From a virus (Duplodnaviria; Caudoviricetes), in the IMG/VR virus record IMGVR_UViG_3300028591_000007, positions 32,001 to 96,000 of that record: 64,000 bases of DNA; one strand, written 5' to 3'. Made by a program: the position numbers and the translations under genes. The notes below the pieces were generated by a model that searched no databases, was not told the origin of the DNA, and saw nothing but the letters and a program-made list of their open reading frames with translations. Positions 1 through 42,599 of the stretch are shown here, piece after piece (position 1 is the first letter of the stretch; every line of letters starts with the position of its first letter).

Positions 1-138
1 ATTCAAATCAATTGTTGTATTAGAAGATACTATAAGTTGTTTAGTTATTTTGTAATTACCTGGACTAAATGTTATTGAACCTTTTTCATTTAATTTTGTT
101 TGAATGGTTTTCATATCATCAGTTTTATTTACTAACAT
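1..138 (-). CDS. 5' part of a probable right-handed beta-helix (pectate-lyase-like) protein, runs off the left edge
   Basis: Manual translation MLVNKTDDMKTIQTKLNEKGSITFSPGNYKITKQLIVSSNTTIDLN after AAGGAGG RBS; resembles beta-helix N-terminal cap. Confidence 0.55.
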   Translation of the reverse strand, partial: MLVNKTDDMKTIQTKLNEKGSITFSPGNYKITKQLIVSSNTTIDLN

Positions 139-185
139 TTTATTAGTTCCTCCTTATACCTATTTTGATTTGTTTTAAGAAAAGT

Positions 186-3100
186 CTACGATACTCCAAT
201 AACACAATCCATAACATTACTGCTTAACTCGTCATCATTATTATCAGTTGTAACTATACAGAAATAATAAGTACTATCGTAAGTTAATCCAGTAATATCT
301 TTAGTTGTTTCTTTCTCGCTAAGAGTAGTAACAATATTATCAGTATCATCACAATTAGGATTCTCACCAATCTTACCATAAAGTTTAATTGATTTGAATG
401 TTGTACTATCAGGTTGAACTAAAGTATAATCAATTGTTGCAGTGTTATCATTCACATCTATTGAGTTAATAACGGGAGACAATGAATTATTACCAGTTTC
501 AACTTTAATAGTTTTAGTAAATGTGTAATACCTTATTGGATGCTCTGGGTCGCTATCATCTGCCGTATAATACGGAAAGAATCCATAGTAATAAGTCTTA
601 CCTATTTTGATGTCTTCATCCTTATATCCTTTAGTCTTATATTTATCTCTTGTTTGAACAGATACAACTTTCTTACCGTCCCATCTGTGAAGCGGTGCAG
701 AATCTTCTTTACGAACTATTGTTGTTCCTTCCCAATTACAAGGATAAGGTTCCCATGTATCAATATCTGGTGGATCAGTCCATTTAAGCTGGATGTAGGG
801 TTTTGAACCTTGATCAAAAGTACCTTCAAATTTTGGATATTGACTTTCTTGTACCCAAAATCCAGGATATTGATATCTTGCAGTTGCATGCCAATGATCA
901 GTTCCATATCTTGACATCGCTAATTCTGCATAATCTCCAAATTGTGCTTGAGAAATTACTGGATCAGTTATTCGTGTTCCTCCGTATTCTTCATATTTCC
1001 AAGAACCACCCCCATATGTGTGATAATTTGGATTATAATTAATTATATAAACTTCATAAGATTCTATATCTATTACTTTTGTTATAATTGTATTTTCAGT
1101 TTGACCAAGTATTTCTTCTTCTGTTGGATAATAATCTTCTTGTCCTAAAAAGTGTTCTGCATTATATGAAGAATAATCATAAATATTTTTACCAAATAAA
1201 TCTCTATAACCTTGCCATTCTTTTGTTCCAACATATGTCCAAGAACCATTAATATAAACATATAAAGGCCAACAAAAATCATTATCTGGATCATTTACAT
1301 CTTGATGTACTACTGGGTCATCATGCTGGTAATTTTTAACTTGTACATAATCACCTTCAATAATATCTATTTGTTGTCCACCAACAGTAATAGGATTAGT
1401 AGTATCACCATCTTTTATATAAGAGTCTGCAGGATATGAAGAAGTCATATATAAATGATTTTGACTTAAATCCAGAGTGCCCGCTGTCCCCTTAACAAAC
1501 ACAGCTTCACAATTCATTGGTTCGTCAAGTAATCTATAACCACAGTTACGCATATATTCAATTAAATCAAATGGCGTCATTAATTCAATATTATTTTGAT
1601 CGTTTGAACCAGATTTAGAACTAGCTTGATAATTTGTAAAGACTGGACTACGCATATCACCTTTTGCAGTATACTTATCCATCATCTTTTGTATACCTTC
1701 AAGTTCTCTCTCTAATATATATGTATAAAAGTGAGACTCTTCTCCAGTTATTTTATCAGTAAAATCAATTCTAATTCTATCACCAGTATCTCTTACAAGA
1801 TCTGCAAATGTAGTTAATTGACATGGTGTATATATTCTATTTCTTATATTATTATATCCTTGATTAAACAAAGCGTCAGGTGATACAGTTCCTTTTGCAA
1901 TATCTTTACCAAACAATTTATTTCTTATTACTTTATACTTGTTAATCATTTTCTTAATATCTTCATTATCAGATTTTGTAACAAGATAAGAACAAAACAT
2001 ATTATTAGTACAAGTAAATGTTTGTATTTGTGATTTCTGTTCAGCAGCATATTGTGCTTTATTCAACTTGTGATAATTTATTTCGGTATTATCATCTAAT
2101 ATAAATTTCATTACCAAAATATCTTGAACTTGATAATAGTCATGTTGAAAACCTTTAACTATTTCACTGTTATCAAATTTAGATTCTGGTATTTTATCAA
2201 TATTATCATCTTCATCAACGCTTGGTAATGGTTTGAATGATAATATACATCTTTCATAGTTATTATATTTACTTGGATGTTTTTCTTCCGGTGTTGGTTT
2301 GATTGTTTCTGGATCAACAAAGTAACCATCTTTGAATCTATCAGTTCTTATAATAGGATAACGTCCAGCTAATAATCCAATATCTTCTAAGAATTTACCA
2401 GCAGATAAAGCACCAGCACTCATAATTTTTGGATCTTGATAAAACTCTAATTCAAGTATATCCATATATCCATAACGTTCATATTCTTCTTCGCCTGGTT
2501 CGGATGGTATATACCTTTCATTTCCTTTTTTAAGAATATCTTCGTCGATCATTATTGGCATACCAAGACCAGTATAACCATTACCTTCTTCATAATCATC
2601 TCTACCATATTCATAGGGATTAGTTATTGTATTACCAACCTTCATTACAATTTTCTTTTCTTTTGTTTCTGGATCTATTTCTGGTTCATAAACAACTGGA
2701 TCATATGCTGCTAAATGTTCTATCAAATCAGTTAATGCTTCTTTAATAGTCCATTTTTTTTTAGGATCTCGTATCCAGTTCTCATCCCAATCATCTGGTT
2801 TCTTAACTTCTTCACCAGATTCATTTGTCATATCTTCATAATCTGATTGTAGTTTATTAATGCCTTCAAATAAATGTTTATACCAGTTGAATATATCCAT
2901 TTCTCTTAACCACATTAAGAAATCATATCCGGTTATCTGTCTTGAATAACCATCATCAACTAGTTTATCTTCTTCAATTTTAAACATTCCAAGATAGATT
3001 AATGTAGAAGAATCACCATTGAAATACATATATGCTTCAACACAGGCATTACCAAGTAATTCACCAACAATCTTTCTTTCAGTTCCATTTGGGTCTGTTT

Positions 3101-3518
3101 CTACAAATTCATATTTTTGAAGATTTGGTATAACGGGTTCCCAGTATCCTTTTTCTTCATTATATTCTTTTTCATTCCTTATAGTAAACTGTATTTGTGC
3201 AGCATTACAAGATGAGAATGTTAAATTGTTATCAGAATTTAATGAATTAGAATATTTAAACTTTTCTTTAACAATATCTTTATTTGTAATAACCCATTCT
3301 ACTGGTTTATAAATGTAATTTCCATGACTATCTTTTGCAGGTATTGGTTTCTTATTTGGTTCATCACCAATCCATTCCCATTCGGGCATTTTTGATGTTA
3401 TTATTGGTTCGGAACCAGGTACTTTTTCAACTTCAGTAGCATGAGGGACTATTAAGATGTCTCGATGCACGCCCTTACCAAATTCATCTCTTATATCACT
3501 TGTATAATCCCAACGCAT
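186..3518 (-). CDS. Tail-tip/baseplate hub-like protein, MRWDY paralog 3, with C-terminal FN3-like domains
   Basis: 1110 aa; N-terminal ~650 aa clearly paralogous to 5167..8727 and 8756..12259; QLKWTDP..VRKE..P..DG..YYYGFFPY FN3-like module; downstream of tail genes. Confidence 0.65.
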   Translation of the reverse strand: MRWDYTSDIRDEFGKGVHRDILIVPHATEVEKVPGSEPIITSKMPEWEWIGDEPNKKPIPAKDSHGNYIYKPVEWVITNKDIVKEKFKYSNSLNSDNNLTFSSCNAAQIQFTIRNEKEYNEEKGYWEPVIPNLQKYEFVETDPNGTERKIVGELLGNACVEAYMYFNGDSSTLIYLGMFKIEEDKLVDDGYSRQITGYDFLMWLREMDIFNWYKHLFEGINKLQSDYEDMTNESGEEVKKPDDWDENWIRDPKKKWTIKEALTDLIEHLAAYDPVVYEPEIDPETKEKKIVMKVGNTITNPYEYGRDDYEEGNGYTGLGMPIMIDEDILKKGNERYIPSEPGEEEYERYGYMDILELEFYQDPKIMSAGALSAGKFLEDIGLLAGRYPIIRTDRFKDGYFVDPETIKPTPEEKHPSKYNNYERCILSFKPLPSVDEDDNIDKIPESKFDNSEIVKGFQHDYYQVQDILVMKFILDDNTEINYHKLNKAQYAAEQKSQIQTFTCTNNMFCSYLVTKSDNEDIKKMINKYKVIRNKLFGKDIAKGTVSPDALFNQGYNNIRNRIYTPCQLTTFADLVRDTGDRIRIDFTDKITGEESHFYTYILERELEGIQKMMDKYTAKGDMRSPVFTNYQASSKSGSNDQNNIELMTPFDLIEYMRNCGYRLLDEPMNCEAVFVKGTAGTLDLSQNHLYMTSSYPADSYIKDGDTTNPITVGGQQIDIIEGDYVQVKNYQHDDPVVHQDVNDPDNDFCWPLYVYINGSWTYVGTKEWQGYRDLFGKNIYDYSSYNAEHFLGQEDYYPTEEEILGQTENTIITKVIDIESYEVYIINYNPNYHTYGGGSWKYEEYGGTRITDPVISQAQFGDYAELAMSRYGTDHWHATARYQYPGFWVQESQYPKFEGTFDQGSKPYIQLKWTDPPDIDTWEPYPCNWEGTTIVRKEDSAPLHRWDGKKVVSVQTRDKYKTKGYKDEDIKIGKTYYYGFFPYYTADDSDPEHPIRYYTFTKTIKVETGNNSLSPVINSIDVNDNTATIDYTLVQPDSTTFKSIKLYGKIGENPNCDDTDNIVTTLSEKETTKDITGLTYDSTYYFCIVTTDNNDDELSSNVMDCVIGVS

Positions 3519-3556
3519 GTAATATTTGTCTCCTTTCTACCTATTTTGAATTATTC

Positions 3557-4246
3557 CTATGTATTTTCTCGTAGAAATGTTATCCTAGCATATCCATTAC
3601 CAATTTTAGGCTTGCCACTTACAGGAGTTTCACTTGCTTCATTTACTGATTCTGTCTTTGTCGATTCAGCACTTGAAGTGGAAATATTATAACCAACCAT
3701 CTTTTTATTAGATAATAGAGAATTACCAATATATCCTGAGCCTGCTCCACCACCAGTATTTTTATCAACTAATGAACCATTTATGTATAAGTTTTCATAA
3801 TTTGCAGTTGTATAAAATATGTATGGCGGAAGACTTTCATTAGAATTAGAATCATATGAATAATTTTTTCCTTCATAATTTCTAGTTGATAAGTTCCAAG
3901 CTACAGATTGAGCTTCTATACCATCACTGATATGAAACTTTGAACCATATAATACATTACTTCCAGAAAGATTTATTGATTGGTCATATGCTATACAATT
4001 GTCAACACCACTTACAAGATCATTACGAAGATATAAATCAGTTACATCATCTATATGATTTAGCCTAAACAAATAACCATAAGCAGTACTATAAGAATTC
4101 ATTAATAGAGTATTACAATTAGGAACAAGTTCTTGACCCATTGCCATTAATTCATCAAGTGTCAAACTAAGTGTTTCGCCTGTCCATGAACTTCTTAAAG
4201 TAACAACTGTGCTTCCAGGTGGTTGTAATAAACCTTTAACTCCCAT
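3557..4246 (-). CDS. Putative tail-associated protein: unique N-domain plus final third of a glycine-rich domain
   Basis: C-term GGGAGSGYIGN..NKKM..GNGYARIT; RBS GAAAGGA. Confidence 0.6.
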   Translation of the reverse strand: MGVKGLLQPPGSTVVTLRSSWTGETLSLTLDELMAMGQELVPNCNTLLMNSYSTAYGYLFRLNHIDDVTDLYLRNDLVSGVDNCIAYDQSINLSGSNVLYGSKFHISDGIEAQSVAWNLSTRNYEGKNYSYDSNSNESLPPYIFYTTANYENLYINGSLVDKNTGGGAGSGYIGNSLLSNKKMVGYNISTSSAESTKTESVNEASETPVSGKPKIGNGYARITFLRENT

Positions 4247-4273
4247 TTATATTTCCTTTCTACTCATTTTGAA

Positions 4274-5029
4274 TTATACAACAATACCTTTATACCCACC
4301 ATACAGACCGCCACCTCCACCAGATACATTAGAACTAGATTCACCTTGTCCAAAAGCATATCCAGTAGTCTGATCTGCAGAATTAGTACTATTTCCGCTT
4401 ATACCGCCAGCATCCGCTCCTGTGTATTCCGTTTCACCAATAAGCATACCACCACCGCCTCCACCTGAGACAATCAATATATCTGAGAGATTGTTGGAAA
4501 GTGATGATAACTGTCCTGTGACTTTGGCTATATGTGTTGCTCCACCACCATTGGATATGTAAGTTTGGACAGGAGGTATATAGCTCTTTATTGCAAGATA
4601 TGTATTACGTTGGTCTTCTGGTCGACCTTCTGAAACCATAGGATAGATACGATATTGACTTGGGTATGAAACTGAATGATAACATGAATAAAACATACCG
4701 ATTTCATTTGTTTCATCTACAGCAAAACCAAAACCAATAAAATCCATATCATTATATCCACCAGAACTTGCACCACCGCAAACTTGATTATTATAATATA
4801 ATTGAAAACCATATTGGTTCGGATAAGTGGATGCTAATGCATCTATTTTCATTATACCATTGTCATAGATGGTGTGCCACTCGTTATCTACTGTTATATA
4901 CCCGATAAGATTAGTACCTTCAATATATAAATCATTATTGTCACTGACTGGATAATTATAATAATCGGTACTTAATGATTTACTAGTAACAAAATTATCA
5001 AGTGTTAAATCTACAACTTCCCAAGCCAC
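4274..5029 (-). CDS. Putative tail-associated protein: unique N-domain plus middle third of a glycine-rich domain
   Basis: C-term GGGATHIA..ILIVSGGGGGG..FGQG..GGGGGLYGG; GTG start. Confidence 0.6.
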   Translation of the reverse strand: MAWEVVDLTLDNFVTSKSLSTDYYNYPVSDNNDLYIEGTNLIGYITVDNEWHTIYDNGIMKIDALASTYPNQYGFQLYYNNQVCGGASSGGYNDMDFIGFGFAVDETNEIGMFYSCYHSVSYPSQYRIYPMVSEGRPEDQRNTYLAIKSYIPPVQTYISNGGGATHIAKVTGQLSSLSNNLSDILIVSGGGGGGMLIGETEYTGADAGGISGNSTNSADQTTGYAFGQGESSSNVSGGGGGLYGGYKGIVV

Positions 5030-5065
5030 ACTCTCACCCTTCTTTCCATAAAATATCTATAATCT

Positions 5066-5147
5066 TACGCCTTACACCAATTAAGGTATTATTCCCAATT
5101 GTAAGCGACCCACTCCATCACGTCTACAGCCTTTCCGCCACCGAGTT
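5066..5147 (-). ncRNA. Truncated tRNA-like element (D-loop-like 5' end plus hairpin, no T-arm seen)
   Basis: CTCGGTGGCGGAAAGGCTGTAGACG resembles the 5' ends of elements at 53012-53129 and 54197-54329; followed by CGCTTACAATTGG...TTAATTGGTGTAAGGCG stem. Confidence 0.4.
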
Positions 5148-5166
5148 GTTTACTACCTATTTTGAA

Positions 5167-8100
5167 TTATTTGACGGTTAAAACTATATTCTTTACATGA
5201 TATATACCGTCGCCACCTTCTATACCAATATAATCTACATATGGTACTTCATTATTATTTATAAATTCTTCAGCATTATGCCAATTCTCATCTGAAGGAT
5301 ACTTACATCCTAATGATGTCATATTCCAATCATTATTACTTCCAATATATGCTATCCAGAATCCAACTCTGTCATAACCACCGCCCCAGTGATACTGATT
5401 TGTTACAGCATAGTCAGCAGTAATCTTTATAATATTTTTCTTTATTCTCTTGATTGGAATCCAGAATACACTATCTGATCTATTAGCTCCTCTACCAGCT
5501 CGTTTTAATTCACCATTTTCTTTAATAGTAGTATATAACCATTGATTACCAATAAGAAGATTCCATTCTGTTAAGAAATAATCTTGATATAAGTAAGTGG
5601 GGACATAACCATGCTCATTTCCATAAACAGCATCTGTCTTATATTTTGTCATATCCCAATTATCAACTAATAGACTTGAATTAAAATCATTAGTAAAGAA
5701 ATCTATGTTATCAGTACCATCCCATACATTACTTGATATTGAATTGATCTCAACTTTAATAACTTTAGTGTATCTAAAGAAATTAATGTCATGTCCATCT
5801 TCTTCTCTATTCTTGTAATATGGGAAGAAACCATAATAATAAGTTTTGCCGAATTCAATATCTTCATCATTGTATGCAATATCTTTATAAGCATTCTTAT
5901 TACTTAAAGTAGTTCTAACAATCTCTGTACCATCCCACATATGTTTTGGTGCTGCATTTTCTTTACGAACTACTACAGTTCCTTGCCAATCAGCTGGAGT
6001 AGGTTTCCATGAATCAATATCATCAGGGTCTTCCCATTGCAATTCTACATGATCTTTAGTATTTTGTGATACTGGATTTTCATGTAAATCAGGATAACCA
6101 CTCGTACAATCAACCCATACTCCAGGATATTGATATGTAGCCGCTATTTGATTCCAATGTTCTTCTTCTTGAGATGTTAGTCTTAAATTAGGTAATACAT
6201 CGTCTGTTAAATGCCCATACGAATTACCATCTATACATATAATATCACCGAGTTCAATATTTATAGTTTGTCCATTTACTTTTAAAACATTTGTTGTATC
6301 GCCATATTTTAAATCATTAGGCTCAAATATCCAATGTTTTGTTGGATCTTCTTTCCATTCTTCAGGATAGCCGCAATCATTAATTGGACTATTTTCATCA
6401 TATGGATCTTTACCAAAAAATTCCCATTTACCATTTACTGTATAAAAAGCAAATTCTGGATAATCACTATAAGGATATGTATTCCAACCCATATATGCTA
6501 TTGGATTTCCACTTGATGTTATATCATGAGGTTCCCATTCTTGTAACTCTTCATTCCAATATTCGCATTTAAGACCATGAGTACTTGGATCATCTTGTAC
6601 TGGTGTTTCGCCATCCCATGTTTCATCTGGATCATAAATAGCTCCATAGAAATTTAAAGGAGAAACTTCGCCACCTTCACTTCCTTCAACAAATATTGCA
6701 CTAGCTTCTATTGGTTCGTCAAGTAATCTAATACCAACATTTCTTAAATAAGATACTAACGAACCTGGTGTTACTGCAATATCTTCAGATCCATCACTTA
6801 ATTTATTACTTATACTATTACGATAACCTAACATTAATACATTTATATCAAAACCACTTTGATAAGTTGTACCAGCTTGATAGTTACTAAATGTTGGATT
6901 AGTTAAAGCGCCTTTAGCTTCATAGGTATCCATCATTTTCTGTACACCTTCAAGTGTTCTTTCAAGTATAAATGTATAGAATTGAGTCTTTTCACCAGTT
7001 ACCTTATCTTCAAAATTAATAAGTATTCTATCACCAACATCTCTTACTGGATCACCATATGTTGTAAGTTTGTATGGAACATAAGATCTGTTTTTGATAT
7101 TATTATAGCCTTGATAGAACAATGCATCACTAGTCATATTATTATTCTTCTTCTCTTTACCAAATAGTTTTGTTTTTATTTTCTTATACTCTTCTATATT
7201 TTTTGCAATGTCTTTATTATCACTTTCTTCAACAAGATAAGAACAAAACATATTATTGTTAAAAGAGAATTCTTGTAATGCATGGTCATCAGCATCTTTT
7301 TGTTGTTGTTTGGTTAATCTTTTATATTCAACATTATTACCATCATCCATACCTATTTTGATTATTAAGACATCCTTTACTGTGAATAAAGAATGTTCAA
7401 ACCCTTTAGCAATATCATTATTTGAGAATTGCTGTTCAGGTTGTAATTTAGTTTGTCCGCTTGAATAAGCATCATCTTTACTTGAAGGTAATGGTCTAAA
7501 TGATAATACACATCTTTCATAGTTATTGTATTTATTTGGATGTGGTTCTTTCTCAGTTGGAACTATTGTACTTGGGTCTATATAGTTACCATCTTCTATC
7601 TTGTCAGGTCTTATAAATGGATAACGTCCAGCTAATAAACCTATATCTTCCAAGAATTTACCCATTGATAATGAACCAGACTTTATTATTTTTGGATCTT
7701 CCATAAATTCTAGTTCAAGTATTTTCATATATCCATAACGTTCGTATTCATCTTCACCTGGTTCGCTTGGAATATATGGTTCTGTACCTTTTGTCATAAT
7801 GTCTGTATCTAACATTACTGGCATACCAAGACCTGAATAACCGCAACCATCACCGTAATCTCTTGCATAGACTGAAGGATTTGTAGTAGTTGCACCAACT
7901 AATGCTTTCTGTACATCACTATCCCATACAATCATATCAAAAGATGCTAAGTGATCAATAAGATCTTGTAAAGCATCTTTTACTGTCCATTTTGATTTTT
8001 TCTTTCTAATCCAATTTTCTTTTGAATCATACTTGTCAGGTTTCTTTTCTTCTTCACCTGTTTTGTTTGTATAATCCAAATAATCATTATCAAGTTTATT

Positions 8101-8727
8101 TATACCTGTAAAGAGATGTTTATACCAGTTGAATATATCCATATCTCGGAAGGTTGCCATAAAGTCATAAGCTGTAATTTCTCTATTATAACCATTATCA
8201 ACAGCTTTGTCTTCTTCAACTCTAAACATTCCTAAACACAATAATGTACTTGAATCACCATTAATATATGTATATACTTTTATTATATAATTTCCATTTA
8301 ACTCACCTAATAACAAATTACCATTATTATCATATTTGTAATAGTATTGTAGATTAGGTATATCCAATTCCCAAGTATCAGTATCTGGGTTGTATTCTTT
8401 ATTATTCCTTATTGTAAATTGTACCATTGCTGAAGATGCAGAAGTAAATGATATATTATCAGATGGATTTAAACTAAATGAATATTTAAACTTCTCTTTA
8501 ACAATATCCTTGTTTGTTATTGTCCAGTCAACATCTGTATAAATATAGTTTCCATGACTATCTGTTTTAGGTGTTCCATCATCATTAAACTCTGGTACTT
8601 TTGAAGTTACTATCGGATCATTTCCAGGTACTTTTATTACATTAGTAGCATGAGGGACTATTAATATATCTCTATGAGGTCCCTTGCTGAATTCATCTCT
8701 GTATTCATCATTGTAATCCCATCTCAT
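5167..8727 (-). CDS. Tail-tip/baseplate hub-like protein, MRWDY paralog 2, distinct C-terminal domain
   Basis: 1186 aa; paralogous N-terminus and FN3-like module; unique aromatic-rich C-terminal ~190 aa. Confidence 0.65.
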   Translation of the reverse strand: MRWDYNDEYRDEFSKGPHRDILIVPHATNVIKVPGNDPIVTSKVPEFNDDGTPKTDSHGNYIYTDVDWTITNKDIVKEKFKYSFSLNPSDNISFTSASSAMVQFTIRNNKEYNPDTDTWELDIPNLQYYYKYDNNGNLLLGELNGNYIIKVYTYINGDSSTLLCLGMFRVEEDKAVDNGYNREITAYDFMATFRDMDIFNWYKHLFTGINKLDNDYLDYTNKTGEEEKKPDKYDSKENWIRKKKSKWTVKDALQDLIDHLASFDMIVWDSDVQKALVGATTTNPSVYARDYGDGCGYSGLGMPVMLDTDIMTKGTEPYIPSEPGEDEYERYGYMKILELEFMEDPKIIKSGSLSMGKFLEDIGLLAGRYPFIRPDKIEDGNYIDPSTIVPTEKEPHPNKYNNYERCVLSFRPLPSSKDDAYSSGQTKLQPEQQFSNNDIAKGFEHSLFTVKDVLIIKIGMDDGNNVEYKRLTKQQQKDADDHALQEFSFNNNMFCSYLVEESDNKDIAKNIEEYKKIKTKLFGKEKKNNNMTSDALFYQGYNNIKNRSYVPYKLTTYGDPVRDVGDRILINFEDKVTGEKTQFYTFILERTLEGVQKMMDTYEAKGALTNPTFSNYQAGTTYQSGFDINVLMLGYRNSISNKLSDGSEDIAVTPGSLVSYLRNVGIRLLDEPIEASAIFVEGSEGGEVSPLNFYGAIYDPDETWDGETPVQDDPSTHGLKCEYWNEELQEWEPHDITSSGNPIAYMGWNTYPYSDYPEFAFYTVNGKWEFFGKDPYDENSPINDCGYPEEWKEDPTKHWIFEPNDLKYGDTTNVLKVNGQTINIELGDIICIDGNSYGHLTDDVLPNLRLTSQEEEHWNQIAATYQYPGVWVDCTSGYPDLHENPVSQNTKDHVELQWEDPDDIDSWKPTPADWQGTVVVRKENAAPKHMWDGTEIVRTTLSNKNAYKDIAYNDEDIEFGKTYYYGFFPYYKNREEDGHDINFFRYTKVIKVEINSISSNVWDGTDNIDFFTNDFNSSLLVDNWDMTKYKTDAVYGNEHGYVPTYLYQDYFLTEWNLLIGNQWLYTTIKENGELKRAGRGANRSDSVFWIPIKRIKKNIIKITADYAVTNQYHWGGGYDRVGFWIAYIGSNNDWNMTSLGCKYPSDENWHNAEEFINNNEVPYVDYIGIEGGDGIYHVKNIVLTVK

Positions 8728-8755
8728 ATTTTAATAGCCCCTCCTTTCTATTTAT

Positions 8756-11700
8756 CTACTCATTTTGATTTGTTGTACCGCCACCATTATATCCATCTTG
8801 TCCACCGACATTAACATAAAGTATATCACCTTGTTGTAATAATACTTCACCAACTGAATAAGAACCATAACCACCTCTTGCAGTATTAGTTCCATCAGTA
8901 GCATTACCACCTTGTGCACCCCATGTTTCAAGTTTATATATACCAGTCTTAGGTGCTATGAATGTTTGTATTGCTCCAGTGTAATCGAAATCTTGTTTCT
9001 TAAATTCTCCAATTGCTATACTTTCACTATTACTACTTATAGGTGTATCATTATTATCTATACAATGTATTGTAAAGTAATAAGTTGTACCATAACTTAA
9101 TCCAGTAACACCAATACTATCCTCATCAGTATCAATATCAAGAATTATATCATCTGTTTCATCACAACTTGGATAAGTATCTATCTTACCATAAAGTTTA
9201 ACACTCTTGTAACTAACATCTTCTGGTATTTCAATTGTATAATTAATAATTACAGTAGTCTCTTCTGCAATTATAGAATCAATTGAAGGTGCATAGATAG
9301 TAACACCAGTTTCAACTTTAATAGTTTTAGTAAATGTATAAAAGTTGATTGGATGGTCTGGGTCAGCTATTTTTGTATAGTATGGAAAGAATCCATAGTA
9401 ATATACTTTACCAGTCTCAATATCTTTATCTTTATATGCAGTATTTTTATATTTATCTCTTGTAGTAATACGAACAACTTTTTCACCATCCCATCGATGT
9501 AAAGGCGGTGAGTTTTCTTTACGAACTATTACAGTTCCTTCCCATGTTGCAGGTGTTGGTTTCCAATCAGTAATATCAGGTGGATCGGACCATTTAAGTT
9601 GGACACATTTTGTTACTTCAACTTTAATTTCAGTTTGATATCCATCTATACCCGAAGTGTTTGGATAACAATCAACCCATACACCTGGATATACATACCA
9701 AGCACCTTCTCCACTCCAATTAGGATCGTCATTAAAATTAGTATCTTGTAAATAAAAGTAATCGCCTAATTGTACAGTATAATCAACACCATTTATTTGT
9801 ATATTAGTAATAGTATCACCCGGTTTAAAACTCGGTGTTATAATTGTATTATAGTCATCGATTATCCTATTATAACCAGTCACATGCCATTTTCCATTTA
9901 CATCATAAAAATATGATTCCTCAAATACATCAATTGGAGGACCACTTGTTACATATTCCTCATTTTCTTCACTTGATAATAACCCATGATTACTTGTATC
10001 GCCTTCGGTTGGATAATTACCATCCCATGTTTGAACCATATCTTCAAGATCTTCATCATAATATTCAGTATAACATTTTGAATAACTACAAGTAGTTTTT
10101 TCACTTCCTGCACCTTTAACAAATTTAGCTTCACAACCAGTTGGTTCGTCTAAAAGCCTAATACCAAAATTACGCCAATATTGTACTAAATCAGAAGGTG
10201 ACATGCCTTTAGCTTCACTACCATCTGAACCACCAGAACTTGGTATTGCATTATAACCAAATGATTGAGCAGAGTAATTAGATCCACTTTGATAAGTAGA
10301 ACCATTTTGATAATTTGTAAAAACAGCACTAGAACTTTCTCCTTTAGCTTCATAAGTATCCATCATTTTCTGAATACCTTCCATGCTACGTTCTAGTATA
10401 TATGTATAGAAACTAGTATGCTCTCCAGTAATCTTATTTGTGAAATTTATCTTTATCCTATCACCAACATCTCTTACAGGATCTGCATATGTTGTAAGTT
10501 TATATGGAACATAAGATCTATACTTCATATTATAATAACCTTGAGCAAATAATGCTTTACTGCTCATGTTACCATTTTTATTAACAGTTTCCTTACCAAA
10601 TAACTTTTTTCTTATAGCTTTATATTCATCTAATTTCTTTTTAATATCTTCCTTATCAGACTTTGTAACAAGATACGTTGCAAACATATTATCACTAAAT
10701 GTAAATGTTTGAACGTTACCTGTTTCAGCTAATTTATGTTGTGATTTAGTTAATCTTTTATATTCTAATTCTGTTTTATCATCCATTTTGATTTTTATAA
10801 TCTCAATGTCATCGACTGTATAATTCTCATGTTGAAAGTCTTTAGCTATGTCATTATTATCAAAATTAGATTCAGGTATATTTATTAACTTTTTATCATC
10901 TTTACTTGTTGGTAATGGTTTAAATGATAATATACATCTTTCATAATTGTTGTAACGATTATCATATTTATGTTCTTCTCCAGAAGGTATATCTGCCGGA
11001 TCTTCAAAGTCATGCTCGTCAAACTTATCAGCTCGAATGAACGGATACCTTCCAGCTAATCTACCAATATCTTCTAAGAACTTGCCCATGCTTAAAGTTT
11101 TTCTTGACATTATGTTTGGATTTGCACAAAATTCCAAGTCAAGTATATCCATATAACCATAACATTCAAAAGCATCTTCTGCAGGTTCATCAGGTATTTT
11201 ATATTCTTTTTTAGTACTCGTTTCTGGATCTGGTAATATATCTGGATCAATCGTTACAGGCATACCTAAACCACTATAACCAGCACCTTCTTTATAGTCT
11301 CGTCCGTAATCATTCGGATTTGTTATAGTGTTACCTAATTTTGCAACTTTCTTTTTTACTTTCTTACCAGTTTGCGGATCTTTAACTGTTTCTTCTTCAA
11401 ACACAATTGGATCATAAGAACAGAAGTTTTTAATTAGATCTTCTAGAGCTTCTCTTATTGTCCATCTACCGTTTCTATCTGGAAATAATTCAGTTGATGG
11501 TTTTCTTATCCAGTTAATATCAGCATTATAATCATCTGGATTTGTTTCTTTTTTAGTAGATTTACTAGTAAAATCCATAAAGTCATCATCAAGTTTATTT
11601 ATACCAGTAAAGAGATGCTCATACCAATAATATATGTCACAATCTCTAAAGAAAGCCATAAAGTCATAAGCAGTTATTTGTCTTGAATAACCATTGTCTG

Positions 11701-12259
11701 TAACTTTATCTTCTTCTACTTGAAACATTCCTAAACATATTAAAGTATCTGAATCACCATTAATATATGTGTATACTTTGATAATACAATTACCTGATAA
11801 TTCACCGGTTATCTTTCTTTCTGTTCCATTAGGATCTGTTTCTGTGAATTCATAGTTTTGTAAATTAGGTATTACAGGTTCCCAATATCCTTTTTCTTCA
11901 TTAAATTCTTTCTCATTCCTTATAGTAAATTGTACCATTGCTGCATTACAAGCAGAGAATGATAAGTTATCATCTGAGTTAATAGAATAAGAATATTTAA
12001 ACTTTTCTTTAACAATATCTTTATTTGTAATAACCCATGGCACATCTTGCAATACTAAATTACCACCGGAATCTCGTTCTGGTTGTGGTTGTTTTTCTCC
12101 TTCATCTCCAACCCATTCCCATTCTGGTACTTTATATGTTATTAATGGATCATGACCAGATACTTTTTCAACTTTAGTAGCATGGGGAACTATTAAGATG
12201 TCTCTATGAGGTCCCGTGCTAAATAAATCTCTATATTCATCAGGATAGTCCCATCTCAT
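8756..12259 (-). CDS. Tail-tip/baseplate hub-like protein, MRWDY paralog 1, ending in first third of a glycine-rich domain
   Basis: 1167 aa; C-term FDYTGAIQTFIAPKTGIYKLETWGAQGG..GGYG..LYVNVGGQDGYNGGG. Confidence 0.65.
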   Translation of the reverse strand: MRWDYPDEYRDLFSTGPHRDILIVPHATKVEKVSGHDPLITYKVPEWEWVGDEGEKQPQPERDSGGNLVLQDVPWVITNKDIVKEKFKYSYSINSDDNLSFSACNAAMVQFTIRNEKEFNEEKGYWEPVIPNLQNYEFTETDPNGTERKITGELSGNCIIKVYTYINGDSDTLICLGMFQVEEDKVTDNGYSRQITAYDFMAFFRDCDIYYWYEHLFTGINKLDDDFMDFTSKSTKKETNPDDYNADINWIRKPSTELFPDRNGRWTIREALEDLIKNFCSYDPIVFEEETVKDPQTGKKVKKKVAKLGNTITNPNDYGRDYKEGAGYSGLGMPVTIDPDILPDPETSTKKEYKIPDEPAEDAFECYGYMDILDLEFCANPNIMSRKTLSMGKFLEDIGRLAGRYPFIRADKFDEHDFEDPADIPSGEEHKYDNRYNNYERCILSFKPLPTSKDDKKLINIPESNFDNNDIAKDFQHENYTVDDIEIIKIKMDDKTELEYKRLTKSQHKLAETGNVQTFTFSDNMFATYLVTKSDKEDIKKKLDEYKAIRKKLFGKETVNKNGNMSSKALFAQGYYNMKYRSYVPYKLTTYADPVRDVGDRIKINFTNKITGEHTSFYTYILERSMEGIQKMMDTYEAKGESSSAVFTNYQNGSTYQSGSNYSAQSFGYNAIPSSGGSDGSEAKGMSPSDLVQYWRNFGIRLLDEPTGCEAKFVKGAGSEKTTCSYSKCYTEYYDEDLEDMVQTWDGNYPTEGDTSNHGLLSSEENEEYVTSGPPIDVFEESYFYDVNGKWHVTGYNRIIDDYNTIITPSFKPGDTITNIQINGVDYTVQLGDYFYLQDTNFNDDPNWSGEGAWYVYPGVWVDCYPNTSGIDGYQTEIKVEVTKCVQLKWSDPPDITDWKPTPATWEGTVIVRKENSPPLHRWDGEKVVRITTRDKYKNTAYKDKDIETGKVYYYGFFPYYTKIADPDHPINFYTFTKTIKVETGVTIYAPSIDSIIAEETTVIINYTIEIPEDVSYKSVKLYGKIDTYPSCDETDDIILDIDTDEDSIGVTGLSYGTTYYFTIHCIDNNDTPISSNSESIAIGEFKKQDFDYTGAIQTFIAPKTGIYKLETWGAQGGNATDGTNTARGGYGSYSVGEVLLQQGDILYVNVGGQDGYNGGGTTNQNE

Positions 12260-12295
12260 ATATAGAATGCCCCTTTCTACTTATTTTGAAAAAAT

Positions 12296-12343
12296 CTAGT
12301 AGCAATAAAAGTAAGTAGCATTATTTACTCTTATTACTACTAG
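12296..12343 (-). terminator. Long hairpin followed by T-run, probable intrinsic terminator
   Basis: CTAGTAG...CTACTAG arms; minus strand continues ATTTTTT. Confidence 0.5.
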
Positions 12344-12418
12344 TCATACCCTAAATTACAGAAGCATTATCCAAATTATTATTTCGATAATCCGCCTGTA
12401 ACCTATAAAATGATATGA

Positions 12419-12473
12419 ATACCCAAGAGGGAGTCGAACCCTTATTACATGATACCTATTATCTCTTGAGTAT
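12419..12473 (-). ncRNA. Anticodon-less mini tRNA-like RNA
   Basis: ATACTCA/TGGGTAT acceptor, GAT-AATAGGT-ATC D-arm, AGGG-TTCGACT-CCCT T-arm, only ~6 nt between D and T arms. Confidence 0.55.
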
Positions 12474-12506
12474 GTTATTTTAGTTTTTATTGAGTTATTT
12501 CTTTAT

Positions 12507-12677
12507 CTATAAAAGTGTCATATAGGATGCATATATAATAATTTCTTCTGTTTTATCTTTATTTTGTTTTATAAGCGTAACAGAATAATCATTTGAAGAT
12601 TTTACTATATATCCTTTGTTTAAAAATTCAGGAGAAGATAATACCATTCTCTCATATTCATAATTATATGTTTTCAT
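12507..12677 (-). CDS. Hypothetical protein (56 aa)
   Basis: Manual translation MKTYNYEYERMVLSSPEFLNKGY...YMTLL; TTAGGAG RBS. Confidence 0.6.
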   Translation of the reverse strand: MKTYNYEYERMVLSSPEFLNKGYIVKSSNDYSVTLIKQNKDKTEEIIIYASYMTLL

Positions 12678-12697
12678 CTTTATCTCCTAAAATAGTT

Positions 12698-12907
12698 TTA
12701 TAAACGATACTTTCCAAATCCATAATTAGTAATTCTATTTACATACTCAACACACTTTAAGGCAATATCAACAGCTTTAGGATTTTGTTCTCTTACAGAT
12801 AACAGGAAATCCTCTACAGATACATATTCATCTATTGGTAGCTTTTTATGTGCATTTATATCATTTAAAAACGTATCATATATTGCATCTCTTTGCTCCT
12901 GTGTCAT
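12698..12907 (-). CDS. Hypothetical protein
   Basis: 69 aa ORF with TTAGGAG RBS. Confidence 0.7.
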   Translation of the reverse strand: MTQEQRDAIYDTFLNDINAHKKLPIDEYVSVEDFLLSVREQNPKAVDIALKCVEYVNRITNYGFGKYRL

Positions 12908-13069
12908 CTTTCTTCTCCTAAAAAGTTATTTTATTGGTACTTAATTTATATAATAAACCTTCTCAAAGAAATACTCATAGACGGCTATTATGGACAGTAA
13001 GTTTCGCTATGAGTATCTCTAAGAGAAGAATTTATTAACTAAGTAATGAAATGTTCATTTTATTGGATA

Positions 13070-17869: not shown

Positions 17870-18889
17870 TTAGGGCGTTACAGTTCCGTTCAGGATGTCA
17901 ATAAGATCCTGTACTTCTGTGCTTGTAAGTGACTCTGCATCAGCAGCTTCGATCAGATCAATAATTGTTACATCATCAACTTCTGCTGCAACCCAAGGAC
18001 CTGCTACAGAATGAGCTGTAGTAAACTTGTACAGAACATCCTGATATGTAACAATATCACCAACTGCATACACACCAGCAACAGGATCGAACTCAGGAGC
18101 AAGATCATTTCTTACTAAATCAATCCTTCCGCCAAGTGCTGCATCAGCTGCCTGAAGAGTCTTAACAACAGTGTCAAGATTGATCTTAGTAACCTCTGAA
18201 GCAACCCAAGCACCAGGTGTATCATGAGCTGTAGTAAATTTGTAGAGTTCATCATTGTAAATTACAAGATCACCTACTGCATATGTTCCACTTGTTGCAT
18301 CGAATGCAGGAGCGATATCTGTCTGAGTCTTATCAATTCTTGCATTAGCACCAGCGATTCCTGCTGTAGCAGCTGCTGCAACTTCGTTGATGATCTCTTC
18401 TACAGTTACATCCTCAACCTTTGAAGAATCCCAAGCACCTGCTACATCCTGAGCTGTGGTAAATCTGTAAAGGAAGTTGTTATGTGTAACAATATCACCA
18501 ACTTCATATGTCTCTGTCTCAAGGAACTTGTCAGCGATCATAGCTGCTACATTACCAATTTCTGTATAGATAGCAGCTACATCAATGAATCCAGCAAGTA
18601 CATCAAACTTAAGATCAGGTGTAGAAGCGGTTCCAACATCAGCAATTGCTACATTGGTTCCAGCAGGATAAACATTACCGGCACCTTCTACGAATCTTGA
18701 GTCAGTTGTGAACTCTTCAGTAAGATTGTAGGTCCAACCTACCATACTTGCCTGAAGTGTTGCAGGAAGTCCATTAAAAGCTACTGAACCGTGGAACACA
18801 TATGCTCCATCAACCGCGTCAAATCTGAGTTTAATCGCTTCCATTAATGCGGTAGCGTTACTCATGTCAACAAAATGTTTCTTTGCCAT
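17870..18889 (-). CDS. Structural protein with three CBM5/12-like repeats
   Basis: Three F...Y.VGD.V.Y...LY.FTTAH...G.W repeats. Confidence 0.65.
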   Translation of the reverse strand: MAKKHFVDMSNATALMEAIKLRFDAVDGAYVFHGSVAFNGLPATLQASMVGWTYNLTEEFTTDSRFVEGAGNVYPAGTNVAIADVGTASTPDLKFDVLAGFIDVAAIYTEIGNVAAMIADKFLETETYEVGDIVTHNNFLYRFTTAQDVAGAWDSSKVEDVTVEEIINEVAAAATAGIAGANARIDKTQTDIAPAFDATSGTYAVGDLVIYNDELYKFTTAHDTPGAWVASEVTKINLDTVVKTLQAADAALGGRIDLVRNDLAPEFDPVAGVYAVGDIVTYQDVLYKFTTAHSVAGPWVAAEVDDVTIIDLIEAADAESLTSTEVQDLIDILNGTVTP

Positions 18890-18902: not shown

Positions 18903-19604
18903 TTAAGGTTTTAAGATTTGTAATAGCTCGGCCATTTCCTCTTCGGAAAGACCATCAACAGTGTCGTTCACTTCCATTTCATCCCATTTGTAAGATTGGC
19001 TGTCTTCATCAAAGATGCATTTATAGAAGTGACCTGAGGTGAAACTTAAATTAGTCTCACCAATATATTGCGTTACTCTACCTAGAAGTACTCTCTTTGG
19101 AGTAGGCATTTTTGGATACTGTACCAAATTATTTTGAGGTACCCAATAATAACCATCCCACAAATAGAATATTCCTTCTTCGATAGCGTAATACATTTTT
19201 CTATCGGCAGATGTAAATATTGGTGGTAACATGGTACTGTTTTCTACAATATCGTAATTACCATCTGGACTGCCGATTTCGTTCCACTTTCTATCGTCAA
19301 ATACTGTATCACTGTTTTCTGCAATACAACGATAGAAGCAGGACGCATAAATAACAAGATCACCATATTTATAGAGATTACCAGATTCCCATACATAAAT
19401 AGGTGTTCCGTCATTTACTACCAATTGTGACTCTCTTACTTCACCAGCATCGTTCTTCCATTCAAAAGTAACGATGTTTACGCCATTGCGTTTTTCGACA
19501 GATTTTACTTTACAGGGGGCGCCTTTAAGTCCGCCAAACTGCATTGCTGTTTCATCAGTATATTTTTTGCTAAGAGCGTAAGTGATAATATCTACACCAG
19601 CCAT
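18903..19604 (-). CDS. Structural protein with CBM5/12-like module
   Basis: WESGNLYKYGDLVIY..FYRC..W; MPT..LG..QYIG.T..G.FYK motif shared with N-terminus of 13070..14863. Confidence 0.6.
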   Translation of the reverse strand: MAGVDIITYALSKKYTDETAMQFGGLKGAPCKVKSVEKRNGVNIVTFEWKNDAGEVRESQLVVNDGTPIYVWESGNLYKYGDLVIYASCFYRCIAENSDTVFDDRKWNEIGSPDGNYDIVENSTMLPPIFTSADRKMYYAIEEGIFYLWDGYYWVPQNNLVQYPKMPTPKRVLLGRVTQYIGETNLSFTSGHFYKCIFDEDSQSYKWDEMEVNDTVDGLSEEEMAELLQILKP

Positions 19605-21945: not shown

Positions 21946-22069
21946 AATTAAAATCCTCCATAAGTATTATTTTTTTGTGTTATATATTTAATACCTATTT
22001 TGAATTGTTTTATGAAAAATATTTTTCAGGCCGGCTTAAAACAATTCTCAATAAGTATTGAAACCTAAT

Positions 22070-40822: not shown

Positions 40823-40856
40823 TATGCATCTCCTTTTGATTACAATCCATTTTGAA

Positions 40857-42599
40857 TTATTCGAAAAAGTCTTTGTTTAATTTATATGCTACAAAAGCAT
40901 CCATTAACGCAGACACGTTATCAATCTTATCTTGGTGTCTCTTTTTATGTAACTTTCTATTACCATTACTATCTTCACTAACAACTGCATTCTCCATAGC
41001 ATAACTCATCAGTTGTTCATCAAATAATAACATTCTATTTTCAGCAAGTTTCTTTAACTCACCAAGTGGTACTGATTCAGTTCTAACACCTTGTATTACT
41101 TTCTCAATTCCGTAAGGTCCATTATCCCTAGCCCATCGTTCAACAAACTCTTTAGCATTGTAAGGGTCATAACCTAAACATTCTATAGAGTATTGATGAG
41201 CTGCAATAAACTGTTCCAGATCTTCATATACAATATTTAAATCCAAAACAGTAGCATCCATAACAACTAATGAACCTTCTTCAATGAAAGTATCATATAA
41301 TAATCTTGTTGCCAAAGTCAGTTTAGATTGGGTTAATGTTGTAATATAACTTCGTGTCTTAACACCAAATGTACCATTAGAAAGTGGAAATAGAAAAGTA
41401 AATGCACAAAAGTCATCACCTTGAGATAAGTCACAACCCATTGCACAAGACATGTTCCAAAATTCTTGATGAGGTCCTGGAACTGTTTCTTCATATGTGA
41501 AGTAATATGTGAAACCTTCCATTGGAATATTAAACATCTTTGCAAGTATTTCATTTCTTAAAGACGGGAACGCATTTGCTTTCTTAACATCTTCTAAGTA
41601 ATCCTCTTCTGAAGTTGTATAACCAATGTTAGGATTAGCTTTACGCCACATAAAAGGATAGTTAATCTCTTCCTTATTATCTAGCTTGTAATAGAAAATA
41701 CTTGTGTGTGGATCTACGAACGTACCTTTGAGTATGTCCATTAACATCATTTTGATTGTATCACCAACACCATGTCTAATAGTTCCTTCTGATGAGGTAC
41801 AAAGTAATAAGTAATCTGGTACTTTCTTTGCACCCTGTTCAATTGCTTCTATAGGATTCTCCTTAGTCTCACCTGATAACCATTCATCAAGACTTGCGAC
41901 TTTACAGCGCAAACCCTGAAGCGAATCAATCGACAATGGTCTTACTTCAAGAAGTGAGTTTGTTAAGAAGTTCTGTATTCCTTTCTTTGTAGAAGCAACT
42001 TTAACTCTATTAGCTTTTGAGCCAGTAGTGTTATTAATTGAACCTTCTGTAAGAAATTTGAATAATGGGCCTCTAGCTTTAGTAAGTGCAGTCTTTATTG
42101 GAGACATTACTTCTTCAGCCTGTCTCATAGTTGGTGCTACTGCTATTTGGTGAGTAGTAGAATTATCTATATTCAAGAAGTAATTATGTATTGTACTTGA
42201 ATACAGTGACTTTGATGCACGTCTCCCAACTATAAGAAATTGCTTGTGTATAAGTCGTCTACGAACGTTTTTTGTGACATAATGTCCGGGTTGTCCGTCA
42301 TGTCCTTTAACAAATACTTGTGCCGGTTCAAAGTAATACCAACCAAATATCTGTTCAGCCCATAACTTAAATGAATCGAGTAGGACTAAATCCGAACCGT
42401 CTGTCAAAGTTAGTTCTTTCTCGCAGAACTTTATATAACCTTCTACAGGACCTCTATCATACCAAACTGTTGGATTCGCAATTAATCTATCAATTCGTTG
42501 CATCTCCATTGAAATAGTTTGACAGACAGGTATTTCTGCAGCTAAGACAGCGTCTCGAAATTGCCCATAATATTTCGGTACAGCTGTATTTGATATCAT
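40857..42599 (-). CDS. Terminase large subunit
   Basis: SNTAVPKYY, variant Walker A VGRRASKS, Walker B DEWL, G.DLSQGDDF and KID.V.ALMDA nuclease motifs. Confidence 0.93.
   Translation of the reverse strand: MISNTAVPKYYGQFRDAVLAAEIPVCQTISMEMQRIDRLIANPTVWYDRGPVEGYIKFCEKELTLTDGSDLVLLDSFKLWAEQIFGWYYFEPAQVFVKGHDGQPGHYVTKNVRRRLIHKQFLIVGRRASKSLYSSTIHNYFLNIDNSTTHQIAVAPTMRQAEEVMSPIKTALTKARGPLFKFLTEGSINNTTGSKANRVKVASTKKGIQNFLTNSLLEVRPLSIDSLQGLRCKVASLDEWLSGETKENPIEAIEQGAKKVPDYLLLCTSSEGTIRHGVGDTIKMMLMDILKGTFVDPHTSIFYYKLDNKEEINYPFMWRKANPNIGYTTSEEDYLEDVKKANAFPSLRNEILAKMFNIPMEGFTYYFTYEETVPGPHQEFWNMSCAMGCDLSQGDDFCAFTFLFPLSNGTFGVKTRSYITTLTQSKLTLATRLLYDTFIEEGSLVVMDATVLDLNIVYEDLEQFIAAHQYSIECLGYDPYNAKEFVERWARDNGPYGIEKVIQGVRTESVPLGELKKLAENRMLLFDEQLMSYAMENAVVSEDSNGNRKLHKKRHQDKIDNVSALMDAFVAYKLNKDFFE

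Follow-up and report, generated by a model that had tools for sequence, protein, structure and literature searches.

A glycine-rich domain divided among three tail-module genes of an uncultured phage: a probable naturally split domain that fastens accessory modules

The glycine-rich domain (GRD) of the ALK/LTK type (Pfam PF12810) is described from single polypeptide chains. It occurs in human ALK and LTK (structures 7LRZ, 7MZY and 7NX1) and in membrane-anchored proteins of the Firmicutes type, and in the cultured C. difficile phages phiCDHM11 (gp21) and LIBA2945 (where it is annotated as 'glycine rich protein') it is found intact and in cis, after the tail-fiber gene. Comparable tips are those of Pam3 gp24 (7YPX) and S16 gp38 (6F45), in which a TNF-like or beta base carries a lattice of glycine motifs at the fiber's distal tip, again as a single chain and with short variable loops. 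Here we describe a locus in a stretch of 64,000 nucleotides (the window; bases 32001-96000 of the complete 135.7-kb IMG/VR phage record IMGVR_UViG_3300028591_000007, which has direct terminal repeats) in which the same motif series and predicted fold are divided in order among the C-termini of three genes, P0003, P0002 and P0001. The domain lies at the end of the tail module, as it does in the two C. difficile phages, and its first piece is the C-terminus of a distal tail protein encoded in the tail gene module, the location also seen for tips of the Pam3 gp24 and S16 gp38 type. Whereas the intact PF12810 systems are single chains, three genes are used here (two to four in relatives), with domains of 150-200 residues at the breaks; the turns that are short loops in Pam3 gp24 and S16 gp38 would here be chain breaks carrying whole domains. 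Pam3 in addition uses a separate chaperone, which embraces the domain and contributes nothing to its fold. We consider it likely, with a probability of roughly three in four, that the P0003/P0002/P0001 GRD is a naturally split domain whose pieces fold only together (obligate fragment complementation) and which fastens accessory modules. The genes and pieces are as follows.

8756..12259, minus strand: P0003, 1167 residues, distal tail protein, first of three paralogs that start with MRWDY, phrog_18190; its C-terminus is GRD piece 1.
8762..9001, minus strand: GRD piece 1 (p1, the 'socket'), P0003 residues ~1087-1166, placed from PF12810, hhalign and hidden Markov model (HMM) coordinates; five TNF-like beta-strands and the first glycine-rich motifs, ending ...GGQDGYNGGG, then TTNQNE and the stop.
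4274..5029, minus strand: P0002, 251 residues, an accessory N-domain of ~155 residues followed by GRD piece 2.
4280..4564, minus strand: GRD piece 2 (p2), P0002 residues ~156-250, placed from hhalign and HMM coordinates and the intact model's secondary structure; it comprises two beta-strands and one helix together with the majority of the glycine-rich motifs.
3557..4246, minus strand: P0001, 229 residues, an accessory N-domain of ~160 residues followed by GRD piece 3.
3563..3754, minus strand: GRD piece 3 (p3), P0001 residues ~165-228, placed from hhalign and HMM coordinates; the last glycine-rich motif and three C-terminal beta-strands, ending ...GNGYARITF.

P0003 matches PF12810 with 34.7 bits (cut-off 24.5) over profile positions 6-59 of 243 only, and a six-frame search gave 39.8 bits over positions 6-72. 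P0002 and P0001 alone had no Pfam match at E values up to 1 and no PHROG match. This is a warning for annotation: domain models miss proteins of the P0002 and P0001 type, and a match to p1 only resembles a truncated domain. We used an alignment of 24 intact single-chain GRD proteins (A5) as the target profile and compared with it the alignments of each window piece with its orthologs from six other phages (A2, A3 and A4). In hhalign, p1 matched A5 columns 98-186 (E 6.8e-31, probability 99.9), p2 columns 192-308 (E 9.8e-20, probability 99.2) and p3 columns 312-376 (E 9.8e-20, probability 99.2). The three pieces together tile the intact GRD completely, collinearly and without overlap, and the full motif series is present. 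Both junctions fall in the stretches of A5 with the greatest length variation, i.e. in loops. The tiling of the intact GRD by three gene C-termini is real and no chance effect. A single polypeptide spanning the PF12810 domain was found neither here, where there are three separate open reading frames, nor in the relatives. The first-pass annotation of the window had proposed just this division, with both breaks at normally variable loops, and had suggested a profile search with the joined fragments; the collinear, non-overlapping match bears it out on each point.

As the first-pass annotation had read them, each of the three genes has its own start and stop, no similarity is detectable between the P0002 N-domain and that of P0001, and a full gene of 1186 residues, P0004, lies between pieces 1 and 2. 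Each gene also has its own Shine-Dalgarno-like sequence. The whole 135.7-kb genome contains one p1, one p2 and one p3, with no further copies. An ordinary single-chain GRD could still arise from such a layout if the pieces were joined covalently after transcription or translation, by introns, trans-splicing, inteins or ribosomal bypassing. Phages of Gram-positive hosts do carry group I introns and inteins, and P0002 and P0001 are in the same frame. However, positions 1-13000 matched no intron and no other family of RNA in an Rfam scan at E values up to 1 (there were two chance-level matches elsewhere), and a Pfam scan found no intein or homing-endonuclease family; RNA splicing, which had been named as something to exclude, is therefore unsupported. 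In addition, every gene has its own ribosome-binding site and start, p1 and p2 have a complete gene between them, what intervenes consists of conserved protein domains that are also found at other positions, and in two related loci (L004 and L005) the sequence after p1 runs on in frame as a folded-looking domain. Read-through from P0002 into P0001, which the shared frame might have allowed, was ruled out by two TAA codons and a strong ribosome-binding site between them. We regard covalent joining as very improbable.

The split domain is present in well over a hundred metagenomic relatives, as two to four pieces in separate genes, and the same split recurs in independent IMG/VR, ENA, Logan and NCBI assemblies. 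The domain is broken after p1 in all ten loci that we collected, five of them found in IMG/VR via P0001, one via the p2+p3 alignment and four in ENA and Logan. Homologs that are at least ~66% identical to p1 lack p2 and p3 in their chain without exception, and more distant ones are intact. Among the 120 best p2+p3 homologs, 96 are p2-p3 and 21 are p2 only (like P0002), and in not one of them does the chain carry p1 upstream of p2. When a library with a single sequence for each 50%-identity cluster was searched, stand-alone p3 formed at least 93 new clusters (64 N-p3-C, 14 N-p3 like P0001, 13 p3-C and 2 bare p3), in just one of which a hidden p2 is possible. The three-way form seen in the window holds for the clade in part: the break between p1 and p2 is universal within it, whereas that between p2 and p3 is optional, the two being fused, split or kept apart by an inserted domain within one chain. 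For p1, a quick tree (89 columns, many unresolved forks) placed a mostly cis group apart from the split rows with a branch support of 91, the few rows labeled 'split' within the cis group being truncated proteins or cases of missed p2. The tree also contains several split sub-types and at least four p1 groups, at a resolution too low for fission events to be counted. Other searches found nothing further: no match for positions 3400-9100 in a DNA search of deposited phages, no relatives in IMG/VR scans with P0002 and with P0004, no split-form relative in two GTDB genome scans (one irrelevant weak match to a Myxococcota metagenome-assembled genome), and no match in a tblastn search of INPHARED phages with p2+p3, to which low-complexity filtering may have contributed.

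In 11 of 11 loci the pieces lie on a single strand in the order p1, p2, p3, and a six-frame count gave p1:p2:p3 ratios of 1:1:1 in eight of them and 2:2:2 in three. The pairwise ratio of non-synonymous to synonymous substitution (dN/dS) of the three pieces is ~0.06-0.32, with synonymous differences (pS ~0.6) near saturation. These results bear on the explanation that insertions broke a GRD gene whose remnants are now decaying, or that the split is an assembly artefact. In its favor, pieces 1 and 2 have a paralogous gene inserted between them and the record is a metagenomic assembly. Against it, dN/dS is low at saturated synonymous sites, no frame is disrupted and independent assemblies carry the same split. 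Because of the purifying selection, the balanced sets and the independent assemblies, decay and mis-assembly are effectively refuted, and we consider this explanation extremely unlikely. The relaxed selection expected of a pseudogene, which had been named as an outcome that would overturn the proposal, was not what we found.

We used structure prediction to examine how the pieces relate to the fold. An AlphaFold2 model of an intact homolog (predicted local distance difference test, pLDDT, 81) had as its best PDB matches the GRD/TG domains of ALK and LTK (E 3e-9 to 7e-6), with weaker matches to the mycobacteriophage Bxb1 tail tip and the cyanophage Pam3 fiber. In the beta-sandwich of this model the p1 segment accounts for five strands, p2 for two strands and a helix, and p3 for three strands, and its glycine-rich motifs are spread over all three segments. 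Because strands of the sandwich come from every segment, none of the pieces appears plausible as an autonomous fold. A natural third-piece protein folded alone had a pLDDT of 31-52 in p3 and of 80-93 in the adjoining C-domain. We then predicted the minimal window pieces (88, 75 and 102 residues, with a 7-row alignment each) as three chains, p2 being the scored partner. The ipSAE was 0.92, 0.92 and 0.91 in three runs, and the best of 3 controls reached 0.02. The co-folding runs agreed in at least 98% of contacts with a partner pLDDT of at least 93, and when p1 was swapped for an unrelated protein the pLDDT of p2 dropped to 48. The contacts of lowest error were the strand pairings to be expected within one domain: the p1 strand LYVNV paired with the p2 strand THIA, and p3 paired with p2 through its GYI strand and its final strand. 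The three fragments are thus predicted to co-fold in a test of the kind that the first-pass annotation had proposed.

It could nevertheless be that the pieces no longer assemble and are independent modules, such as self-associating glycine-rich segments or homo-oligomers, their collinearity being historical. Polyglycine-II segments can pack between molecules in other systems, and the link among the three proteins comes from sequence and prediction. This explanation is difficult to reconcile with the strictly balanced piece counts and the fixed gene order in 11 loci, or with the sheet- and lattice-forming residues, which are ~70-90% identical where the surroundings have been replaced. The strands of the three pieces also interleave in the modeled intact fold, co-folding is predicted, and the predicted fold collapses when p1 is replaced. 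Such independence of the pieces appears to us quite improbable.

The surroundings of the pieces are themselves informative. Segments of 100-300 residues occur at every position, i.e. after p1, before or inside p2, between p2 and p3, and before or after p3; P0185, P0188 and P0195 have one between p2 and p3 within one chain. We grouped these accessory segments into families by clustering, and found that the accessory domains fused to the pieces are ~150-200 residues long and that the same families recur at different attachment points. Family 2, for example, was found 18 times after p3, 9 times before p2, 5 times after p1 and once between p2 and p3, and in addition at the C-terminus of P0004. The corresponding features of the window are:

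5167..8727, minus strand: P0004, a complete paralog of 1186 residues between pieces 1 and 2, without a GRD piece.
5170..5802, minus strand: C-terminal accessory domain of P0004 (residues 976-1186), a member of family 2, which elsewhere is fused to pieces of the split GRD.

The closest relative of the small genes of the window (L019, which also encodes an integrase) demonstrates this exchange. Its p2 protein is 81% identical to P0002 in the last 110 residues, with unrelated N-domains. Its p3 protein (57% identity overall) starts with a homolog of the N-domain found in P0001, and what follows p3 in it is a domain with 58% identity to the P0004 C-terminal domain. Related phages therefore carry the same split with swapped accessory domains, as had been expected. 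The L019 domain after p3 gave a confident jelly-roll model (pLDDT 80-93) whose best matches are carbohydrate-binding modules (CBMs), e.g. CBM29 (1gwk; Z 11.7, root-mean-square deviation 2.7 A over 128 residues); Foldseek gave 1w8t (E 7e-6, TMt 0.70). For the P0004 C-domain itself, Protein Atlas offered weak leads of CBM type (score 0.90, with recognition below the reliability mark). Family 2, including the P0004 C-domain, is CBM-like in its modeled fold. The homolog of the P0001-type N-domain models poorly (pLDDT ~40-70). The putative receptor-binding role of the accessory domains therefore draws on one family of the pool, through its CBM-like modeled fold, rather than on the N-domains of P0002 and P0001 themselves. 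On sequence grounds the window appears to hold two solutions for mounting pool domains, one in cis (P0004) and one as plug pieces for the P0003 socket (P0002 and P0001).

In siphophages of Gram-positive bacteria, 'evolved' Dit and Tal proteins with CBMs recognize cell-wall glycans (PMC7291167, PMC7533335). The likeness to these adhesion devices lies in the presence of carbohydrate-binding modules on distal tail proteins. The difference is that the modules of Dit and Tal are inserted in cis, whereas those described here would be attached in trans via the split domain, with P0004 as an additional cis case in the window.

Several relatives contain more elaborate arrangements. The tail protein of L019 (locus 1393-9771) ends in two tandem sockets of different sequence type, and is followed by genes for N-p2 and N-p3-C of the window type and then for N-p2'-p3'-C of a divergent type. 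L015 (577-8890) has five consecutive genes, ...p1' / N-p2'-p1 / N-p2a / N-p2b-p3 / N-p3'-C, in which a bridging protein combines one set's plug with the next set's socket, and p2 is cut into two genes. The nested sets of different type in L015 and L019 argue for specific pairing of the pieces and are difficult to explain without it. In L016, P0178 has p2-p3 and then a complete GRD in cis, and the preceding tail protein ends in p1. In the small relatives a tape-measure gene and a small DUF6711 gene directly precede the p1-carrying protein. The opposite extreme to the split forms are single-chain giants with three complete GRDs in tandem per chain, i.e. P0311 (3197 residues), P0294 (1226 residues) and P0326 (1486 residues). 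In a 38.7-kb relative (L017, positions 5587-6900) the three-piece set is followed by a glycerophosphodiester phosphodiesterase (GDPD) protein and an endolysin with PG_binding_1; such genes are typically found where phages of Gram-positive hosts act on teichoic acids, and are a hint to the type of host.

Chaperone-usher pili are built by donor-strand complementation, in which each subunit has an incomplete fold and the following subunit supplies the missing segment, giving very stable non-covalent chains. Proteins that have p2(-p3) and then a new p1 (gene B of L015, and P0040) would chain in a similar way, as an analogy only. The fold differs from that of the pili, two thirds of the domain would be donated rather than one strand's worth of segment, the setting is a phage tail, and there is no known chaperone or usher.

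We propose the following mechanism. P0003 would provide the socket p1, which holds the first glycine-rich motifs and five of the beta-sandwich strands; P0002 would provide p2, with two strands, one helix and the bulk of the polyglycine-II lattice; and P0001 would provide p3, with the last glycine motif and the three closing strands. The reassembled domain would then attach the N-domains of P0002 and P0001 non-covalently to one tail protein, P0003. Two extra modules would be fastened to P0003 in this way, because p2 and p3 each carry an N-terminal accessory domain of ~155-160 residues. The breaks fall between descending and ascending glycine-rich motifs (...GYNGGG / NGGGATH... and ...GGLYGGYKG / GGGAGSGY...). 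In the tips of Pam3 gp24 and S16 gp38, the distal end is hypervariable and consists of the turns that connect such motifs, for which receptor binding has been proposed (PMC9608196). The breaks would be at the turns that face the receptor in these proteins, and whole domains would therefore be placed where others display loops; by this analogy it is probably the receptor-facing end that displays the accessory domains. We think it most likely that the device is a modular adhesion hub and that exchanging whole genes alters its specificity, because the accessory domains form a shared, shuffled pool in which at least one family is CBM-like. The earlier idea of a clasp that reassembles in trans and holds two exchangeable domains is therefore supported by the tiling, the swapped domains, the selection on the pieces and the predicted co-folding.

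The most serious rival to obligate complementation is a transient, chaperone-like form of it, in which P0002 and P0001 would act as assembly chaperones, completing the domain only while the tail protein folds, or holding it in a pre-infection state, and would then be released without becoming structural parts of the virion. Small genes downstream of fiber genes often encode chaperones, the Pam3 GRD fiber requires the chaperone gp25, bound at the junction of the TNF-like base and the GRD (PMC9608196), and the orphan pieces look, in prediction, incapable of folding alone. However, release of the partner pieces would leave p1 as half a beta-sandwich with its core exposed. Furthermore, large, diverse and shuffled domains on small proteins, one family of them CBM-like, are unlike chaperones, and the bridging proteins of L015, with p2 and then a new p1, imply permanent chains. 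We consider transient complementation to be unlikely.

Several points weigh against a lasting, obligate assembly. The record is metagenomic and the phage uncultured, and the case for trans-assembly is made from sequences and models; we infer the physical assembly of the pieces, their presence in the virion, the binding of glycans or receptors and the position of the breaks in three dimensions, and equally the lasting residence of P0002 and P0001 in the virion as opposed to a transient action. The co-folding result may reflect memory of the solved single-chain folds of ALK/LTK and phage GRDs, and may express likeness to one domain rather than binding. In the calibration of the prediction, 58 of 80 solved complexes attained the mark, as did 2 of 110 mismatched pairs, counts that are only roughly valid here because the shallow, custom 7-row alignments make the job unlike those of the calibration. 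The 3.5-kb gene between p1 and p2 in the window is unusual for co-folding partners; intervening genes between the pieces are found in L002, L015 and L019 too. Finally, the term 'receptor-binding' draws on another family of the pool, identified by its modeled fold, and not on the N-domains of P0002 and P0001.

Going beyond the window, the split GRD might be a general plug-and-socket connector, with several sequence types that pair only with their own p2 and p3, forming branched or chained devices with two to five exchangeable glycan-binding modules, so that host range is re-tooled by swaps of small genes. This broader proposal is possible, and we hold it tentatively.

The locus belongs to a phage with a GC content of ~30% and with all genes on the minus strand. 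At the end of its tail module are three paralogs of ~1100-1190 residues that start with MRWDY (P0003, P0004 and P0005), with the small genes P0002 and P0001 placed between P0004 and P0005; next come genes for a beta-helix-like protein, a holin-like protein and an endolysin. All three paralogs belong to phrog_18190, which has no known function in PHROG. The third is:

186..3518, minus strand: P0005, the third paralog, 1110 residues, context, carrying no piece.

The end of P0005 coincides exactly with the point at which the GRD starts in P0003, and has a sub-threshold match to a Spy0128-like isopeptide domain (PF12892, E 0.057). The paralogs (186-12259) are ~45-88% identical across the first ~700 residues and an FN3-like region, and diverge in a central slot of ~250 residues and at the C-terminus (socket p1, CBM-like domain or nothing). 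Two proteins upstream in the tail module (17870-18889 and 18903-19604) contain CBM_5_12 repeats (E 3e-18 and 5e-4), and the phage therefore has more glycan-binding modules beyond the split-GRD device.

The window also contains a 17-nt motif, TAATTCAAAATAGGTAG, with 7 copies on the minus strand at up to 3 mismatches, compared with 0.7 expected by chance:

156-172, 3537-3553, 4260-4276, 5153-5169, 12277-12293, 21991-22007 and 40843-40859, minus strand: copies of TAATTCAAAATAGGTAG.

The motif is found just upstream of gene starts, most copies being a few bases before the Shine-Dalgarno sequence, and the copy at 5153-5169 is ~125 nt upstream of where P0002 starts. In a related form, AATCAAAATGAGTAG, the motif codes for the final residues of P0003 and the stop codon. 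The motif could be a late promoter, a processing signal or a junction for cassette exchange. The spacer between P0004 and P0002 (5030-5166) is 137 nt long, has a higher GC content than its surroundings and several predicted hairpins (minimum free energy -26.8 kcal/mol), and matched no Rfam family; the remaining junctions of the gene block are 27-38 nt long.

The fold of the GRD, its role at fiber tips and fold complementation in pili are already known; the splitting of a GRD over several genes appears to be new. Full-text literature searches (PF12810, glycine-rich and polyglycine phage domains, split tail domains) found no description of a GRD divided among genes. How phages attach and exchange their receptor-binding modules decides their host range, and the known solutions for attachment either use an anchor or adaptor domain at the N-terminus or insert the modules in cis. 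In the relatives and the window, one small globular domain is apparently built from up to four polypeptides, with the breaks serving as mounting points for binding domains. If the split domain does assemble as proposed, it would be a source of natural, possibly orthogonal, split-domain connectors for protein engineering and for the modular retargeting of laboratory phages; the broader connector reading, if true, would add a new principle of virion assembly and natural orthogonal three-piece split-protein tags. Assembly of the split domain, if confirmed, would also explain many of the 'hypothetical' small genes downstream of tail genes, which Pfam misses because each encodes one third of a domain, and would represent a new assembly principle for the adhesion devices of a large group of uncultured phages.

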